From the IMG/VR virus record IMGVR_UViG_649989997_000001, positions 1 to 64,000 of that record: 64,000 nucleotides of DNA, one strand, 5' to 3'. This document shows positions 11,642 to 64,000 of this stretch, in pieces (position 1 is the stretch's first letter; every line of letters starts with the position of its first letter). The notes beneath the pieces are model-generated. The model was given only the letters and a program-made list of their open reading frames with translations, was not told where the DNA came from and made no database searches. Origin of the DNA: a virus. Its lineage: Duplodnaviria > Caudoviricetes. The position numbers and the translations under genes were made by a program.

Positions 11642-12136
11642 TCATAGAAAATTTTTCTTGTCAGGCAAGAATTTCCTGAGCCGCTGATAGATGCGCCGCA
11701 TCCGCTCCGATATGGTGCTTTCCAATACGCCCTCCTGACGCGCAATCTCCGACTGGCGCACGCCTTCCCAAAATACGCGCCGCAGAAGCTCCCGTTGCTG
11801 CGGACGAAGCTGCGCAATGGCATGATGAAGCTCCGAATAATCCGCGCCGAGCAAAGCCGTCGGCACATCGGGCATGGCATCCGCCCTCCGGCGGTCAAGA
11901 TCGTCCGACGACAAGTGGACATGGCGACGCGTCTCGGTGCGATTCCTACGGAAAGTCGGAGCATTGACCTCGGCATCCAAAATCTCCTGTGCCGTGCGCC
12001 GCTGAACTGCGTTCTTGTCCTCGGCGGCATTCAGCCGCTGCCGATAGTCCGTCTCCACCATGACGGTGCATTCCTCCTCCGAAACTTCCAAAACAGTCGG
12101 ATGGAGCTTGTCTTCGTAATACAGAGCAATTTTCAT
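11642..12136 (-). CDS. Sigma70 region-4 (ECF-like) phage sigma factor
   Basis: L..AIAQL...QRELL..EG..Q.EIAR..GV HTH; RBS AAAGGA before ATG 12136. Confidence 0.8.
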   Translation of the reverse strand: MKIALYYEDKLHPTVLEVSEEECTVMVETDYRQRLNAAEDKNAVQRRTAQEILDAEVNAPTFRRNRTETRRHVHLSSDDLDRRRADAMPDVPTALLGADYSELHHAIAQLRPQQRELLRRVFWEGVRQSEIARQEGVLESTISERMRRIYQRLRKFLPDKKNFL

Positions 12137-12320
12137 GGTCGTGTCCTTTCCGCCTTGGATGCGGGCGGCAGGAACACAAAAGGCCGATGCACGCGATGTA
12201 CACCGGCCTCTTTCGCTTGAAGATGGGCGCAAAAAGTCACGGTGGAAACACCGAAGTGCCAATACTGCTCGCGCAGTTCGTCTCTTCGTGCGTTCCCGCC
12301 GCCCCTAATGGCCATCTCAA
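12137..12320 (-). ncRNA. Putative structured cis-regulatory leader RNA of the sigma gene
   Basis: Alternative stems covarying with 63744..63908. Confidence 0.55.
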
Positions 12321-12630
12321 GGCATTGAGAAATTTACAAGATTTACAATTACGGCTTGTGAATGTTCACATTCACATAAATTCCATTAACAAAAATGTAG
12401 ATTTTTCCCCCTTACTGCTGATATAGCTTTACTGTCTGCGCACGCCAGTCAAGCCACGGGCTTCCGTGACGTTGGTCGACTCTCAATAGTGACTGCATTA
12501 TTCAAGCACCAACCTCCTCCCCTTGAGCCTCGGCTTCATGAGTGCCGAGGAGTTAGATGGAATCCAAGACGCTAATCTCGGCGAAGATGCTTTCTGATAT
12601 AAAATTTATCAAAAGCCCATCAGAGACATG

Positions 12631-12762: not shown

Positions 12763-14714
12763 TTAAGCAACAATTTTCCCCCATGTTCGATACCCCTCAG
12801 CTTTTAGCTGGGTGTTGCAGAATGCCAGCGTGTCCATGAAGTGATGTTGTATAAGGTAGTGACCGAAAAATCCTTCCTCATCATCGGGAAAATCATTTTT
12901 TGATTTTTTTATCAAATCCATACTCAGAATAGGATGCAAATGCATTCCGATGCATAATGCACAAACACTCTCAAGAGATACTCGCGTCTCATCATTTCTA
13001 AGCTGACTAATGTAATCCTCTGATAATCCTGTCCTGATTGCCAATTCCATATTGGTAAATTTGCCCCGTCGGTTTGTTCTTGGATTATATGCATCCAATC
13101 TCTTCATGTGGGCATTTAATGTTCCCGAGAAGGAGTTGGGTAAGTTTCGCAGAATTTGCATCACGCGAATGCCCTCTTCTTTTAGCTTTTGCCGTTCAAC
13201 TGCTTGCTCTTTTTTGTCCTGCATATCCTCCTCATCGATATTACGTGTTTCGCTAAAAGATGCCGCATTTATATTTTGGCTCAGATAGCACATATTGTAA
13301 TAATCACCAGAACTTTTGTTAAGCTCATAGTTTCTGTTGAATTTCAAACAGCATTCATCAACATGCTCCAACCCATACTGTGTAAGTTCATAACCTTTAT
13401 CTTCACCCAGATATTTTACATATTTTTCGTCGTTGATGCAGACGAGATAGCCGAGATAAACAAATGCTTCACTCTCAAAGAGAGCCGCGAAAGATTCAGC
13501 CTCATCGTAAAGCCGCTCAAAATTCTTCTCGTCAAGCAAAAAAGTCTGATATTCACCGAGTGCATCAGGATTGAACACATACGGATACTTATAGCCCCCG
13601 TTTACATATAAAAAACTCCCCTCTGCACATTTGTATCCAAGCTGCAAGGCACGTAATTTTGCTTCATAGCGCGAAACACCGAAACACTTCGCAACACTTT
13701 CTAAAGCATTCTCCATAACATCCCCAGTGCGACGATAAGGCGTAGAATATTTTTCTTCAATAATCTTCGGAAAAATATCATCAAAATACACGCGTGGCAT
13801 TAAAATTCGGAGGGCAAGGGCATTAGCCTGCCATTCTGCCCACCAGACAGCCTTTTCCACACCCTGCAATGCTTCTGGTGTCACATCCGGCGACACTTTG
13901 CATGACAGGTTTGTCTCCTCCTGATTCAAGAGCGCCAGAATCTCGAAGAACTTCTGGTGTTTTTCCCAATGGATGATTTCATGGGCTATCGTATTGAGTG
14001 GGCTACCCAATTCCCCCATAAAGGAGCGTTTTTTACTGATGAGCATCGTTCCTGGTCGAAGTTCCTTTTCGACGGATTCCGTTCTATCATATAAGCGTGG
14101 ATAAAAAACCTCTCATCTACAATTTCTGTAGACTTGCGAAAATACATCCTGCCGAATTCGTCATCCGGCAAATCCGCTTGATAGAAGTCAATCCCCATCT
14201 CCTGCAAAAGGTGATCCACAGGAAAACACCACATATCATAAATGGCATTTTGACAGTAAAACGCTGTGAAATCATCAGCGATGTCTTCCAAATCCTCAGC
14301 GTAAATATATGGGATGAGATACTCATCCAAAGCATCTTCTTTGTCGAACTTCCCACCGAAATACTCCTCGGTATCTAGAACCATCATATCATGGAGACCA
14401 TTTTTTAGCTTTGCCTGTACTGTGATCGTGAACCATCTCGTTTTACGATCAGCCTCATATTTTTCTGTCCCGAGCCCAAGCAATACAATATCTGCCAAAA
14501 GATTGATTTCAATTTTGATGAGCGGCCCTACATCATCATGGCAAATCAGCGTTTTGATTTCGACATTTTCTACCTTTTGTTTGCATAGCGACAGAACATT
14601 TATGGAATGAAAGCCCATACCATCATGGGACTGATTCACGAAGGCTGATATTTCCTGCTCCAATATATTTATATAATTCGCTTGGAGATAACTCTTAAAA
14701 TCTGTGTATGCCAT
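12763..14714 (-). pseudogene. ImmA/IrrE metallopeptidase + XRE HTH protein split by a 1-nt frameshift
   Basis: HEIIH zinc motif and C-terminal HTH in 12763..14046; N-terminal part in another frame; one extra A at the A6 run 14103..14108 joins them. Confidence 0.75.
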
Positions 14715-14782: not shown

Positions 14783-17692
14783 TCAATAATACTGCTCAAT
14801 ATAGCCATAAGCCTTGTCGAATACTTCCTTGTCCTTGATTTTGTATTTCACCCAGACGACGCTGCGCAAAGCTTTCTTGACCTCCTGCTTGCCGGCTGTC
14901 GTGTTCTGCCAGCCATCGAAGCGGACAATCTTCACAATGCCGTCAATATCCATAACAATACGCTCCACGATGACAGGGGTATTCTGGTTTTTGACACCAT
15001 TGAAAAGCTCTGTGAGTGCGGCTTTGCCCTTATCGACTTCTTCCTCCGGCACAACTTCTTTTTCAACCTGTGCTGCCTCTTTCGCCATTTCGAGTAGGTG
15101 CTTCAGGAACTCGATGCTGGTGATAAGACCTTGCTCATGCTTTTCGCGTAGTTTTTCCAGCCGCTCTCCTAGTTCGATAAACTTTGGGTCATTGCCGTGC
15201 TTTTTGATTTTCGCCATCAAGTCGATCTCCATGTGCTTCGCCGCTGCTTTCGGAGTCTTGTGCTTTGCAATGAAGTCATCAATCAAATCCGCCGAGAGAG
15301 ACAAAATTTCCTCGTCCTCGTGGGTATGCCCCACTTCCAGATTTGAATGGACGATTTCCATGGTCTTGGCTCCCAAGGCCGCCCAGATCAGTGCGCCGCC
15401 ATTTCCCACAGGCTTGACGGATTCATAGACCTTGGTGAGCCACACATAGTCCATGCGATACGGTGTCAACACGGGGTCAGGAGACAGCGCATTCCAAGCA
15501 CGGTTCAATACACCATAATCAGCAGCGAACTGATCCTTCTCCTTGTTGGTGGGAATGCACTCCTGTGCTGCCATCAGCCCCTCCCAGCCGTCCACAGTAC
15601 GATCAACACCCATAAAATAACTGAGACATTTTTTTATGAGCGCCGGGATTTTCTTCTTGACCTCCTCGATATTGGTGACAATTTTCTTCATACTGGACTC
15701 ATCAAAATTGAGCGCTTTCGCCACATTGTCGAAGATGCCGATGTAGTCCACGATAAGCCCGAAGTTCTTTCCTTCATCATAGGTTCGGTTCGTGCGGCAG
15801 ATCGCCTGCAACAGCGTATGGTCTTTCATGGGCTTATCGAGATACATGACTTGGAGAATCGGTGCATCGAAGCCCGTCAAGAGCTTTGCCGTCACAATGA
15901 CGATTTGCAGTTTGTTGCCAGGATCGCGGAAGTTGTCGAGGACTTTTGCTTCCTCGTCCTTGGAGCGACGATAGGCTTTGTATTCGTCGGCTTTGTCATT
16001 GTTGGTATCCATGACAATGGTCGAGCATTCAGCGCCCAGCAGTTTATCCAGCTCCTTCTTGTATTGCAAGCAACAATGACGGTCGTAGACCACCACTTGT
16101 GCCTTGTAACCGTTCGGACGGATTTTCTCCGTAAAATGCTTGGCGATGTGGGCACAGACTTTATGTATGCGTTTCTCGTCGTACATAATCGCCTGCATAT
16201 TGACCCGCTTTGAAAGCTCTGCCTTGTCGGCCTCACTCAACCCCTCGGTCAGCACATCGAACTCTCTGTCCATCGTCTCCCTGTCAACCCTGAGGTCAAT
16301 AGGTACCGGCTCAAAATTGAGCGGTAATGTTGCACGGTCGCGGATGGAGTCAGAAAAGGAATACTTACTCATGTAGCCGCTGCGGTCTTCCGTTGCGCCA
16401 AACGTAGCAAACGTATTCTTATCGAGGCGGTTGATGGGCGTTCCCGTCAGACCGAAGAAAAATGCATTTGGCAGAGCCATACGCATTTTAACCCCCAAAT
16501 CCCCTTCCTGCGTTCTGTGACACTCATCCACCATAACGATAATATTATCACGGAGCGAAAGCTCTCCTTCCACCTCCTGAAAGCGGAAAATCGTGGTAAT
16601 GATGATTTTTCGGATGTCCATACGGAGTTTTTCCATGAGCTCTTGACGGGTGGATGCCGACTCCAAGTTTCCTACGTCGGACGCATGGAACTGTGCGGTA
16701 ATCTGGGATTCCAAATCCAATCGGTCGTCCACAATCAGCACCGTAGGATTCCGCAAATCCGGCAGCATACGCATCTTCACGGCAGCAAATTCCATAAGAT
16801 AGGATTTCCCCGAACCTTGGAAATGCCAAATAAGCCCCTGCTTAGGGTAGCCTACCCGAACACGGTGAATCATCATATTAGCGCCCTCGTACTGCTGGTA
16901 TCGGGCGATGACCTTGTATTTGCGATGTTTGCTGTCCGTGGCGTAAAGCGTAAAGAACTGGAACAAATCCATGACCTTGTAGGGAGTTATCATATTCTCC
17001 ATGCTGGTCTGAACAGCCACCAGACTCCCGTCTGACTTATCATCTGTCGTGTGCCACGGCCCCCACTTGGCTGCGGGCATACACACCGAACCATAGCGAT
17101 AGCGTTTGCCCTCGGTGGCAAAGTTAAAGACATTGCAGACGAACATCTGCGGAATGCTTTGCTCATAGGCATTGATGTCCATTGCTCCATCCAGCCAGCT
17201 GATCGAGGCGCGAACGGGAGTCTTTAGTTCTCCTATGACAAAAGGAAATCCATTCACCAGAAGAACAATATCCAGCCTCTTGCCGCCCTGCTTCGTTGGG
17301 TATATCCATTGATTGGTGACAACATAACGATTCTTGTCGCTCATGCCGTTGATTTCTGTGCCAAAATACTTGATGGATGTGTACTGGTTATCCTCACCAA
17401 AGGGAAACGTATTCTCCTCAAAAACCATGGCCTTGAAGCGTTCATTTTGCTCCACAAGATTATCGGCATTTGTAGTAGCAAAGAGCCGCCGCAGTTTGAT
17501 AAGCACCTCATCGGCACGAGAAGTGTCCTCGGCGATCTCCGGGTTAAGCGCGATGAGAGCCGAACGCACCATCTCTTCTTCAAAGGGATCGTTTTCACTG
17601 CGGGTGAATTCTTCCGGCGGCACATACTCCCATCCGATTTTGGTAAGGGTGTCGATAATCATCTTTTCCGTAGTATTGTCTTCATTAAACAT
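14783..17692 (-). CDS. hsdR: Type I restriction enzyme R subunit
   Basis: RLDIVLLVNG..IGELK nuclease, QGSGKS, DECHR, TGTP, LTGFDAP. Confidence 0.95.
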   Translation of the reverse strand: MFNEDNTTEKMIIDTLTKIGWEYVPPEEFTRSENDPFEEEMVRSALIALNPEIAEDTSRADEVLIKLRRLFATTNADNLVEQNERFKAMVFEENTFPFGEDNQYTSIKYFGTEINGMSDKNRYVVTNQWIYPTKQGGKRLDIVLLVNGFPFVIGELKTPVRASISWLDGAMDINAYEQSIPQMFVCNVFNFATEGKRYRYGSVCMPAAKWGPWHTTDDKSDGSLVAVQTSMENMITPYKVMDLFQFFTLYATDSKHRKYKVIARYQQYEGANMMIHRVRVGYPKQGLIWHFQGSGKSYLMEFAAVKMRMLPDLRNPTVLIVDDRLDLESQITAQFHASDVGNLESASTRQELMEKLRMDIRKIIITTIFRFQEVEGELSLRDNIIVMVDECHRTQEGDLGVKMRMALPNAFFFGLTGTPINRLDKNTFATFGATEDRSGYMSKYSFSDSIRDRATLPLNFEPVPIDLRVDRETMDREFDVLTEGLSEADKAELSKRVNMQAIMYDEKRIHKVCAHIAKHFTEKIRPNGYKAQVVVYDRHCCLQYKKELDKLLGAECSTIVMDTNNDKADEYKAYRRSKDEEAKVLDNFRDPGNKLQIVIVTAKLLTGFDAPILQVMYLDKPMKDHTLLQAICRTNRTYDEGKNFGLIVDYIGIFDNVAKALNFDESSMKKIVTNIEEVKKKIPALIKKCLSYFMGVDRTVDGWEGLMAAQECIPTNKEKDQFAADYGVLNRAWNALSPDPVLTPYRMDYVWLTKVYESVKPVGNGGALIWAALGAKTMEIVHSNLEVGHTHEDEEILSLSADLIDDFIAKHKTPKAAAKHMEIDLMAKIKKHGNDPKFIELGERLEKLREKHEQGLITSIEFLKHLLEMAKEAAQVEKEVVPEEEVDKGKAALTELFNGVKNQNTPVIVERIVMDIDGIVKIVRFDGWQNTTAGKQEVKKALRSVVWVKYKIKDKEVFDKAYGYIEQYY

Positions 17693-61595: not shown

Positions 61596-62720
61596 TCAAC
61601 TTTCCTTAAAATCTTCTGCTGCGGTATTCATCACAGGCCGCTTGTCGCTCATCGGAGCGAGGGTTGGTTTCCCCTGTGGCTTTACGATGAAGCCTCCGAG
61701 CAGTTCCTCAAACTTACTTTTTCCAAGAAGTGCAGTCATTGCTGTAATCCCGAGCAGTTTTTGCTCATACGGCTCAAAGCCTGCTTCTTTGACGGTTTTG
61801 GCGACCGCCGTCTCATCGGTGTACTTCCGATTCGAGCGGCCTTCGACCAGTTTCCAGTCCGCCCACTGTTTTCCTTGGATTGCCCGCTGCAAGGCGTATT
61901 CCTTGATGTCGCTGACCCATGCGGCGAGCGTGTCGGCTTTTGCAAGCACCGCCTCCACCTCGGCATCCTCCAGTGTCGGCGGCATCTCGAAGTCATACCG
62001 GGCGAGTTCCAGATTGTACTCTGCCCGTTTACGGCAGGTCGCCTTGATCTTGCAGAACTGACAGTGCGCCCCTGCACTGAACTCGCCTTCTCCTGCGTGT
62101 GTCAGCTTTGCCGCAGGTACAAGCGTATCTGCCGCCCATGCCAGAAGGTTGGCTTTCGAGATGCTGAACTCTGAGATGTTGGCGAGACGAGGTTGAAAGA
62201 TCACCATCCGCACATCGCCGATGTCGTACAGACCGTCGAACAACTGGACGCAGCCGAGCGCGTAGCACATCATCTGCGGATTATGGTCTGCACTGACCTC
62301 GATGCCCTTGCCGTGCTTGTAGTCCACAATGCAGACGGTCTTACCGGAGACGATGAGCGTGTCGGCTGTGCCGAAGCCATCCGGCACAAACGCCGAGAAG
62401 TCGACGCGCTGCTCCACCGAAACCATCGTGTCCTTACTCTCGGCGCGGAACTGACCGACCAGTTCCATCACGAACTGGCAGTATGCCTCGGCACATTCTT
62501 CCATCTCAGTGTCATAGGAGGCGAGATGCTTGGTCGGATCACGTGCCTTTTCGCCCAGAGCCTTGCGGAGTTTGTACTCGCAGAGCGCATGTGCGTCAGT
62601 CCCTTGGGCGGCATACTCGCTCGGCATATCGGATTTATCCGCATTGAGCCGTGCCGACGGCGGACAGGCAATCCATCGTGCGGCAGAAGATGCAGAGAGG
62701 ACGGCGTGCTTACGTGCCAA
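61596..62720 (-). CDS. DUF2800 Cas4-like exonuclease
   Basis: LSASS..RW..CPPS, GTAD, DYKHG, CQFC..C. Confidence 0.85.
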   Translation of the reverse strand: MARKHAVLSASSAARWIACPPSARLNADKSDMPSEYAAQGTDAHALCEYKLRKALGEKARDPTKHLASYDTEMEECAEAYCQFVMELVGQFRAESKDTMVSVEQRVDFSAFVPDGFGTADTLIVSGKTVCIVDYKHGKGIEVSADHNPQMMCYALGCVQLFDGLYDIGDVRMVIFQPRLANISEFSISKANLLAWAADTLVPAAKLTHAGEGEFSAGAHCQFCKIKATCRKRAEYNLELARYDFEMPPTLEDAEVEAVLAKADTLAAWVSDIKEYALQRAIQGKQWADWKLVEGRSNRKYTDETAVAKTVKEAGFEPYEQKLLGITAMTALLGKSKFEELLGGFIVKPQGKPTLAPMSDKRPVMNTAAEDFKES

Positions 62721-63086: not shown

Positions 63087-63743
63087 TTACATAAAATCTT
63101 TGAGCTGTGCCTGAAGCCCGGGCATGAACTTATTCATGCGCTTGCGGACGCTTTCCTTAGATTTGAAGCCGACAGCAGCGGCAATCGCACGCTCCGACTC
63201 TCCCGCCGCCTTGCGGACGAGAATTTCATGGTCGATGGGATCGAGTTCACCGAGAGCCTCGTACAATTTGCGATTGCGCTCTCTGCAACTGACGGTCTCG
63301 GTGACATCCTCGTGAACGGGAAGCGCGGGATCGTTGACTTCCACCGCACGCTCCAAGGAGATTGTCCGATACACGGGATGTGAGCAGCCATCACAGCTGC
63401 GATTGGCGCAGCAGGGTTTTCCTTCATAGATACAGTGCTGCCCACGCTTTTCCCGCTTATCCTCCCGCCAGATCGGTCGCATGACAGCAGAGTATTGCTC
63501 GGCATCGACAGGTGTATAAATTGCCCGCTCCGACGCCTTGAGGAACTTTTCTCCGGTAGCCTTTCGCCGGACGAGTTCGTCCATGCCCGTATCCCGTAAT
63601 CTTCCGTTTTCGTGGATCTGAATCAGGACGGGGACATACACGCCCAGCTTCTTACTGAGCTGAAAACGATGTCCCTGCTGTCGGAGTGCCTTGACCTCCT
63701 GCGCGGAGTAGTCTTTAATGATGCCGTTGAGCTGGATTTTCAT
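63087..63743 (-). CDS. Sigma-like factor with Cys cluster and region-4 HTH
   Basis: C..CC..C..C cluster; L.EAL.EL..GESERAIA..VG HTH; AAAGGA RBS. Confidence 0.72.
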   Translation of the reverse strand: MKIQLNGIIKDYSAQEVKALRQQGHRFQLSKKLGVYVPVLIQIHENGRLRDTGMDELVRRKATGEKFLKASERAIYTPVDAEQYSAVMRPIWREDKREKRGQHCIYEGKPCCANRSCDGCSHPVYRTISLERAVEVNDPALPVHEDVTETVSCRERNRKLYEALGELDPIDHEILVRKAAGESERAIAAAVGFKSKESVRKRMNKFMPGLQAQLKDFM

Positions 63744-63908
63744 AGTTTTGCGTTCCTTTCGTTCTTGCCGAACGGCGGGATGCAAAACTACGCACGGGCT
63801 TCTATCCGAAAATGGGCATAAAGAAGCACGGTGGGAGCATAGAGATACTGACAAGCTCGTTACCTGTCAGCATCCCTATTCGCATCCCGCCGTCCTATGG
63901 CCATCTTG
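63744..63908 (-). ncRNA. Putative structured leader RNA, homolog of 12137..12320
   Basis: Covarying alternative stems; RBS-sequestering hairpin. Confidence 0.55.
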
Positions 63909-64000
63909 GACAACAGATTGACTTACTTAGGGAAACCGAATTTGAATCTTCCTACCACCACCTTAAAAATCTTTCTCTACATAGGAGCGGACACATACAT

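Follow-up and report, generated by a model that had tools for sequence, protein, structure and literature searches.

In the mRNA of the lambda cIII gene, two conformations hide or expose the ribosome-binding site, and ribosome binding or RNase III is thought to favor the open form. The maturation gene of MS2 and the hok mRNA are controlled kinetically, through sequential folding of the RNA. Gut and oral Firmicutes have abundant temperate phages, whose lysis-lysogeny circuits are, to our knowledge, almost unstudied.

Here we present an analysis of a 5' leader of 185-205 nt, encoded on the minus strand, which precedes both of the sigma-like early genes of two prophages in a 64,000-nt stretch of viral DNA (the window). 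A first, sequence-only reading had described the two leaders as RNA switches in which a segment A pairs either with a nearby segment B or, at long range, with a segment C that can otherwise cover the ribosome-binding region. Computation established the alternative structures together with their conservation, their covariation and the ranking of their predicted stabilities. The interpretation that we consider probable is that a cis-acting two-state leader gates translation, and usually read-through as well, of the early (replication) operon in temperate Firmicutes phages; we infer that the leader regulates both translation and termination in vivo.

Organization of the two leaders and their neighborhoods

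The features of both leaders are collected in Table 1, and every segment named in the sequence-only reading was found at the minus-strand position given for it. From 5' to 3', the order of elements is a pyrimidine-rich block, a hairpin of ~100 nt (H1), a terminator-like hairpin (T, in element 1) and the C:SD hairpin. H1 consists of a basal stem (P1), an asymmetric internal loop, a second stem (P2) in which A pairs with B, and a variable tip (P3). P2 contains a bulged A as well as a 1x1 C/A internal loop, which is the C-A mismatch noted earlier. Minimum-energy folding of both elements returned the pairing that had been proposed, with A:B inside the long 5' hairpin and C paired with the ribosome-binding region; in element 2 the C:SD hairpin reaches over the start codon too. 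Hairpin T is present in element 1 as reported, with a predicted stability of -22.7 kcal/mol. Element 2 is without T, and a remnant of the left arm of T persists upstream of C.

Table 1. Coordinates of leader features in the window
Feature	Position	Strand	Basis
Element 1 upstream pyrimidine-rich block, directly 5' of the hairpin	12321..12334	-	conserved in nearly all types (alignments)
Element 1 5' hairpin H1 (P1, internal loops, P2 = A:B, variable tip P3)	12219..12319	-	minimum-energy fold; covariance-model matches
Element 1 segment A, 5' strand of P2, also complementary to C	12289..12304	-	inverted-copy search; folding
Element 1 segment B, 3' strand of P2	12239..12251	-	folding
Element 1 terminator-like hairpin T; 14 pairs, 5-nt loop, U tract running into C	12178..12212	-	folding
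Element 1 segment C; partner SD arm (OFF) or A (ON)	12163..12178	-	complementarity; duplex energies; forced folds
Element 1 SD arm (12141-12154) and start codon (12134-12136)	12134..12154	-	minimum-energy fold
Element 1 regulated gene, 164-aa sigma-70/ECF-like protein	11642..12136	-	profile matches
Element 2 conserved upstream block	63909..63922	-	full-length model match 63738-63922; alignment
Element 2 5' hairpin H1	63808..63908	-	minimum-energy fold; covariance-model matches
Element 2 segment A	63879..63895	-	complementarity
Element 2 segment B	63828..63839	-	folding
Element 2 segment C	63770..63786	-	complementarity; alignment
Element 2 sequestering hairpin 3' arm, over SD and start codon (63741-63743)	63741..63764	-	minimum-energy and forced folds
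Element 2 regulated gene, 218-aa protein, weak sigma-70-like C-terminus; then DUF2800 replication module	63087..63743	-	profile matches

As claimed, segment A has a long-range partner in each leader, and the complementarity spans 16-17 pairs. In element 1, C is the sole inverted copy of A anywhere in the window at up to two mismatches, both differences being compatible with G-U pairing; chance alone would give ~0.9 matches with up to three mismatches. A and C of element 2 differ at two positions, where 0.4 such matches are expected by chance. Three sequence blocks are shared by elements 1 and 2 with identical spacing. The earlier description of these blocks as kept by both elements is correct for the pair, but they are not invariant in relatives, in which the basal stem varies and is loosely kept: five of the seven outer P1 pairs show double changes, and only ~70% of cells pair in the large alignment.

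The block upstream of H1 is A/U/C-rich and occupies the same place in nearly all relatives, frequently with A/C-rich sequence before it. Its conservation extends to leaders in which it is unable to pair with P1; possible roles are those of a promoter, a start region, a binding site for a protein or a site of cleavage. In the ON fold of element 1 it can pair weakly with the 5' strand of P1, a pairing for which the cognate advantage was marginal (223 of 5000 permutations). Roughly 40 nt upstream of hairpin 1 lies a perfect palindrome of 8+8 nt with a 2-nt spacer (12358-12375, minus strand), and other leader types have different short palindromes at the same distance; they look like type-specific repressor operators. 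Upstream of leader 2 by ~185 nt, in the same record and ~95-120 nt past the window end, a strong terminator-like hairpin of 13 pairs and a U run (L128:394-422, minus strand) follows directly on a weak promoter-like site, a possible sign of a very short transcript or of an additional attenuator.

Leader 1 is also spanned by a 60-codon ORF (12133-12315, minus strand), whose stop overlaps the sigma start codon (ATGA). Since it has no ribosome-binding site and no conservation in other types, it is probably not translated. Leader-peptide attenuation was rejected as a candidate: different types do not share the AUGs of P1 and A, the frames of these AUGs end variously, and none has an SD.

The two regulated proteins are indeed barely similar, as the sequence-only reading had it, their alignment being limited to the C-terminal helix-turn-helix region (21% identity, E 0.03). 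The element 1 protein (phrog_11138) matches Sigma70_r4_2 with an E of 3e-8 and reaches 42.6 bits against TIGR02937, for which the cut-off is 42.9; the element 2 protein (phrog_13787) is only faintly sigma-like (TIGR02937, E 0.005). Among 13 downstream proteins compared with Pfam or NCBIfam, ten gave weak, mostly sub-threshold matches to sigma-70/ECF-like or region-4 profiles, two had no match, and one was a Rha-family regulator. Their N-terminal sequences fall into several unrelated families.

One leader type can precede different genes. Locus L090 (1487-2208, plus strand) has a nearly identical element-2-type leader followed by a first ORF unrelated to that of element 2 (window 63087-63922), and this comparison points to a putative recombination exactly at the start codon. 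At another locus (L115:1487-2325, plus strand), the place of the sigma-like gene behind the leader is taken by a phage regulatory gene of the Rha family; because of this replacement, we conclude that the leader behaves as a portable module. Further downstream, element 2 and locus L004 share genes for DUF2800 (61596-62720 for element 2), an Enc34-type ssDNA-binding protein and DNA polymerase A, and element 1 is followed by Gp157 with an AAA_24 replication module.

On the upstream side, the leaders are flanked by immunity-type or cargo genes, in either orientation, and these genes differ between types. Upstream of leader 1, on the minus strand, are a 427-aa protein (12763-14046; phrog_4031), in which a Cro/C1-type HTH is weakly recognizable, and the R subunit of a type I restriction system (14783-17692), from which we take leader 1 to border a cargo/immunity region. 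Divergent from leader 2, just past the window end, is an 868-aa NACHT/STAND NTPase with a SNaCT14 C-terminal domain (L128:517-3123, plus strand). This is probably a prophage-borne defense gene, and its N-terminus resembles, by eye, the divergent upstream proteins of L004, L112 and L092. The position of the leader, downstream of an immunity-type region and at the opening of a replication operon, is the basis on which we infer a role in the choice between lysis and lysogeny.

Distribution and conservation of the leader

Retrieval of relatives through the two sigma-like proteins gave close relatives only. A strict three-block DNA pattern, searched in species genomes, returned mostly chance matches in GC-rich genomes and three sequence types only; the third type, matching the pattern exactly, was found in an Ihubacter genome, a Lachnospiraceae MAG and one viral contig. 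Covariance models were then built in succession, R1 and then R2 describing the 5' hairpin, for whole-genome searches, and R3 describing the full-length leader. The 5'-hairpin model picked out 12 of 150 genomes sampled from the Selenomonas family, 5 of 150 from Negativicutes, 2 of 151 from the order of Ihubacter, and 4 of 151 from Clostridia, while the samples of Lachnospiraceae and Lachnospirales (151 genomes each) held six and five true matches, respectively. One Selenomonas/Centipeda genus was positive in 14 of 25 genomes, with up to three copies per genome, and co-resident prophages bear different leader types.

A looser pattern matched 84 IMG/VR viral contigs, 74 of them new, and all 74 were confirmed by R3 at 64-218 bits. 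Because the looser pattern fixed short cores of A, B and SD, those columns cannot vary in the 74 added loci. Altogether the leader was found in more than 100 related phage or prophage loci of gut and oral Firmicutes, spanning two bacterial classes; with the full-length model, 101 loci carry full-length copies, 83 of them distinct, and all have the same architecture; the 74 viral contigs and the 14 positive Selenomonas/Centipeda genomes are included in this set.

No Rfam family matched the leader, which places it outside the curated families, a check that the sequence-only reading had asked for. The whole window compared with all 4227 models of Rfam 15 (cmscan) gave zero matches at gathering scores, and the two leader regions, at E up to 10, gave only unrelated chance matches of 13-15 bits, with no antisense-RNA family (C4 included) and no EAR among them; the comparison also took in the DUF2800 and DUF2815 motifs, insofar as Rfam curates them under those names. 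Likewise, a BLAST search of 50,697 GenBank phage records with either leader as query yielded no similar DNA, and within a limited coverage of the literature we found no description of this leader. We class it as an RNA motif that is absent from Rfam, widespread in phages, and would work like known attenuator or riboswitch platforms.

An orphan riboswitch class would also be without an Rfam match. If the 5' hairpin were an aptamer whose small-molecule ligand shifts the balance between A:B and A:C, the usual expression platform would be in place, with a terminator, an SD sequestor and mutually exclusive helices, and the conserved bulges and asymmetric internal loop of the hairpin would have a ready role. 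The conserved part is, however, a single long irregular hairpin; it showed no junction of several helices, and a non-systematic search brought up no pseudoknot with support. Its internal loops vary in sequence and are rich in U, and the regulated genes are phage regulators rather than metabolic or transport genes. We consider a ligand-responsive aptamer very unlikely.

Conservation of the OFF helices was assessed on model-based alignments, since plain MAFFT with RNAalifold gave a meaningless consensus, the variable tip and indels being misaligned. As null models we used shuffles and controls in which the pairing partners were slid, both of which are blind to kinship. For the 5' hairpin alone, 92% of cells are paired, compared with 43-50% for slid partners, and 10 of 20 pairs show double changes; none of 500 shuffles reached the observed values. 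For the full OFF structure in the 83 distinct leaders, 83.1% of cells are paired (39-50% slid) and 26 pairs have double changes, values again reached by none of 500 shuffles. The SD-sequestering hairpin is conserved, covarying and present in minimum-energy folds: its inner stem is paired in 80.5% of cells, with double changes at five of six pairs, and its outer stem in 72%. Hairpin T has a stem of at least eight pairs in 28 of 40 distinct leaders (medians -18 kcal/mol, a 7-nt loop, and six U in the next 9 nt), and nine of its 12 pairs show double changes among the 83 distinct leaders. A consensus terminator scan called no T, including that of element 1, because the loops or mismatches fall outside the rule of the scan.

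Both leaders fold better than dinucleotide shuffles, with z-scores of -5.3 for element 1 and -7.7 for element 2, and none of 200 shuffles was as stable. Moreover, in 37 of 40 leaders folding is more favorable for the sense strand than for the antisense, by ~10 kcal/mol, and G-U is frequent among the conserved pairs; together these features speak for an RNA with the same orientation as the gene. They bear directly on the notion that the conserved element acts as DNA, for example as an operator, an origin or a packaging site, for which its regulatory intergenic position beside operator-like palindromes might speak. The conserved G-U pairs would be C-A on the other strand, the strand asymmetry is as just described, the U tract runs in one direction, and the SD and start codon mark the exact end of the element. 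A DNA-level function is thus barely credible to us.

The alternative helix and the proposed switch

In the two-state arrangement that we favor, the leader would control the first gene of the operon, nearly always one for a small sigma-70/ECF-like protein. In the OFF state, A would be locked to B in the 5' hairpin and C paired with the SD arm, so that ribosomes could not start, and in most members a GC-rich hairpin T with its U tract would sit after H1 and stop most transcripts. In the ON state, A and the base of the tip stem would pair with the U tract and C in a long-range helix of 14-21 bp, leaving the SD arm free. In most members T would dissolve too, because its left arm and loop would pair with the segment just 5' of B.

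Three lines of computation support this logic, in which A:B with C:SD is OFF and A:C is ON, as first proposed: covariation in the 83 distinct relatives, the energies of cognate duplexes, and the energies of forced states. The covariation part of the earlier proposal stands for the OFF helices and for A:C in that both are kept by compensatory changes; the number of A:C pairs with double changes is not above shuffles (7 vs 7.8 in the smaller set, 8 vs 6.4 in the larger). A:C is paired in 88.3% of cells, compared with 44-51% for slid partners, and 42 cells have double changes, although only ~4-5 independent compensatory events are visible, these counts being made on an alignment fitted to the OFF structure and not to A:C. 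The full-length alignment also carries a 1-nt register error in A for element-1-like types, by which A:C is under-counted, and direct duplex folding was used instead. In this alignment-free comparison, cognate A:C duplexes average -29.8 kcal/mol and non-cognate ones -25.3, and none of 5000 permutations was as low; the control pairs B:C and A:SD show no cognate advantage.

The most telling position within A bulges out when A joins B, and the nucleotide of C opposite it falls in the internal loop of C:SD; the two covary nonetheless. Most leaders have C-G here, L004 and L114 have A-U, and L105 and L106 have U-A; in the last two leaders the adjacent pair is altered too, so that A:B is weakened and A:C kept. 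The position is mismatched in 20 of the 83 distinct rows, partly via mis-registration. This compensation, at positions unpaired in both OFF hairpins and in L105 and L106 made at the expense of A:B, argues against the view that the OFF hairpins alone are functional as a constitutive insulator or attenuator against read-through, with A:C a by-product of similar, duplicated hairpins, as does the cognate advantage that is found for A:C and for none of the control pairs. A does resemble the SD arm and B does resemble C, as duplicated hairpins would; the predicted ground state is OFF, and several loci have a co-oriented upstream gene whose transcripts would need stopping. Taken together, we regard this by-product explanation as quite improbable.

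Comparison of the two states in energy gives an order that depends on the length of the RNA. Through C, ON is favored over OFF by -6.8 kcal/mol in element 1 and by -13.6 in element 2; in the full leader, the difference becomes +0.6 and +8.3 kcal/mol, respectively. Consistently, minimum-energy folds of truncated RNAs contain A:B in all 83 distinct leaders up to the U tract, A:C in 60 of 83 once C is present without the SD arm, and A:B with C:SD in 78 of 83 at full length; such length-dependent folds are thermodynamic folds, and only a proxy for co-transcriptional folding. By a looser constrained fold, OFF is preferred in most full leaders by a median of ~7.6 kcal/mol, and ON is the minimum-energy fold in 4 of 35. 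Since OFF is favored in most full leaders, ON would need kinetic trapping or a helper. When A:C is forced in element 2, the SD and start codon are wholly unpaired; in other leaders forced into ON, the SD region is not always fully free.

The segment just upstream of B has a cognate advantage in pairing with T-left plus loop (-11.5 cognate vs -8.5 non-cognate), from which it follows that in most types the ON state would be an extended rod in which H1 and T are both dissolved. B against the left arm of T alone has no cognate advantage, the signal requiring the pre-B segment and the T loop.

The sequence-only reading had likened the leaders to the immunity RNAs of P4 (CI) and P1 (C4), and on this point it fared poorly. 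A small RNA of ~150 nt, made of the hairpin and T, would in that manner pair with the leaders of its own phage or of an incoming one and hold them OFF or terminate them. The geometry is suggestive, in that, as in P4, a single segment is complementary to two more within its own leader, and a hairpin followed by a terminator has the shape of a small-RNA gene. Co-resident prophages with different leader types would suit such a scheme, and so would the finding that cross-pairing is 7-12 kcal/mol weaker than cognate pairing. Yet cross-type duplexes between the two co-resident elements remain strong (-24 to -25 vs -32 to -36 kcal/mol for cognate ones), which implies poor specificity in trans; A is buried in its own hairpin; and A acting in trans on C would open the SD and activate its target, not repress it. 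Element 2 and many relatives are without T and nevertheless keep A, B and C. There is also no match to an Rfam antisense-RNA family, and no extra copies of A, B or C lie elsewhere in the 64-kb window. We think an immunity RNA acting in trans improbable.

As to what would set the switch, we tentatively suggest, within the cis-acting model, that transcription itself is the trigger, through a kinetic window created by the order of synthesis. For a brief period in which C has been synthesized and the SD arm has yet to emerge, A:C would be the most stable fold; C would invade A:B before the SD arm exists, with the partly unpaired base of the tip stem acting as a toehold for the U tract, and the full leader would later relax to OFF. 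A nascent read-through transcript would thereby offer ribosomes a short window in which to capture ON, and resting transcripts would be silent. Cleavage of the 14-21 bp A:C duplex by RNase III could likewise fix ON. A switch of a purely kinetic nature gives no account of how induced and leaky transcripts would be distinguished.

Nearly as likely as this kinetic window, and so a real if lesser possibility, is a factor that opens or blocks the 5' hairpin. A protein or RNA of phage or host would bind the hairpin (at B, P1 or the internal loops) and release A, which would then open T and the SD hairpin, for instance on prophage induction. In 78 of 83 leaders the resting state is predicted to be OFF, which also forms first, as a factor-flipped switch would have it, and such a switch better accounts for the bypass of T: antitermination at T needs H1 open before T is complete, which points to a factor already bound. 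The sequences of A and B are conserved far beyond the needs of pairing, and the bulged A in B is nearly invariant, although the four-way constraint linking B with A, A with C, and C with the SD arm could by itself explain that conservation. The analysis turned up no candidate factor, and with flanking genes that differ between types, a linked regulator encoded by the element is not obvious. Whether by the kinetic route or by a bound factor, it is conceivable that the leader serves as a self-contained co-transcriptional timer, or as a sensor of a host or phage factor, that decides if the early sigma-like regulator of the prophage is made.

Significance and comparison with described systems

The leader is longer and has better covariation support than many accepted RNA motifs, and it lies outside Rfam. 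If our reading is true, it provides an RNA checkpoint between release of the repressor and the sigma-like factor of the phage itself, and a natural switch that changes its preferred fold twice during synthesis of the chain. Should the timer or sensor reading hold, lytic commitment in many phages of Clostridia and Negativicutes would be gated by three-way competing helices. The core of ~190 nt, which needs no identified cofactor as far as seen here, could also serve as a regulatory part.

Several described systems share part of this design. The antisense RNAs P4 CI and P1/P7 C4 resemble it in that one early-leader segment is complementary to two others (here A with B and C) within a phage immunity region; those RNAs act in trans after processing and repress, whereas the geometry here predicts activation in cis. 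In countertranscript attenuation of the pT181/pIP501 type, in HK022 put and in EAR, as proposed here, a structured leader before a terminator decides the reading of an operon on a mobile element. Unlike the pT181/pIP501 systems, however, our leader had no antisense promoter that we could find, and a role of the put or EAR kind would not explain a covarying A:C helix or the sequestration of the SD.

With lambda cIII the leader would have in common an early regulator of a temperate phage placed under a closed/open equilibrium of its mRNA. The cIII helices are short and lie within the start of the coding region, in contrast to an untranslated leader of ~190 nt with a terminator-like hairpin, and there is no sequence relation between the two. 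The likeness to MS2 and hok is in the course of folding, the predicted preferred fold shifting with chain length, such that a transient fold would permit translation and the final one would forbid it; for our leader this course is drawn from thermodynamic folds of truncated RNAs, and, unlike in those systems, no 3' processing step or antisense partner is known.

In its layout the leader is like riboswitch expression platforms and attenuators. It has mutually exclusive helices in a 5' leader, a terminator-like hairpin followed by one that sequesters the SD, and a single upstream segment that competes for both. It differs from them in that there is no recognizable aptamer, leader peptide, known RNA-binding-protein site or Rfam match, and in that A, the anti-sequestor, is held within a very stable hairpin of its own.
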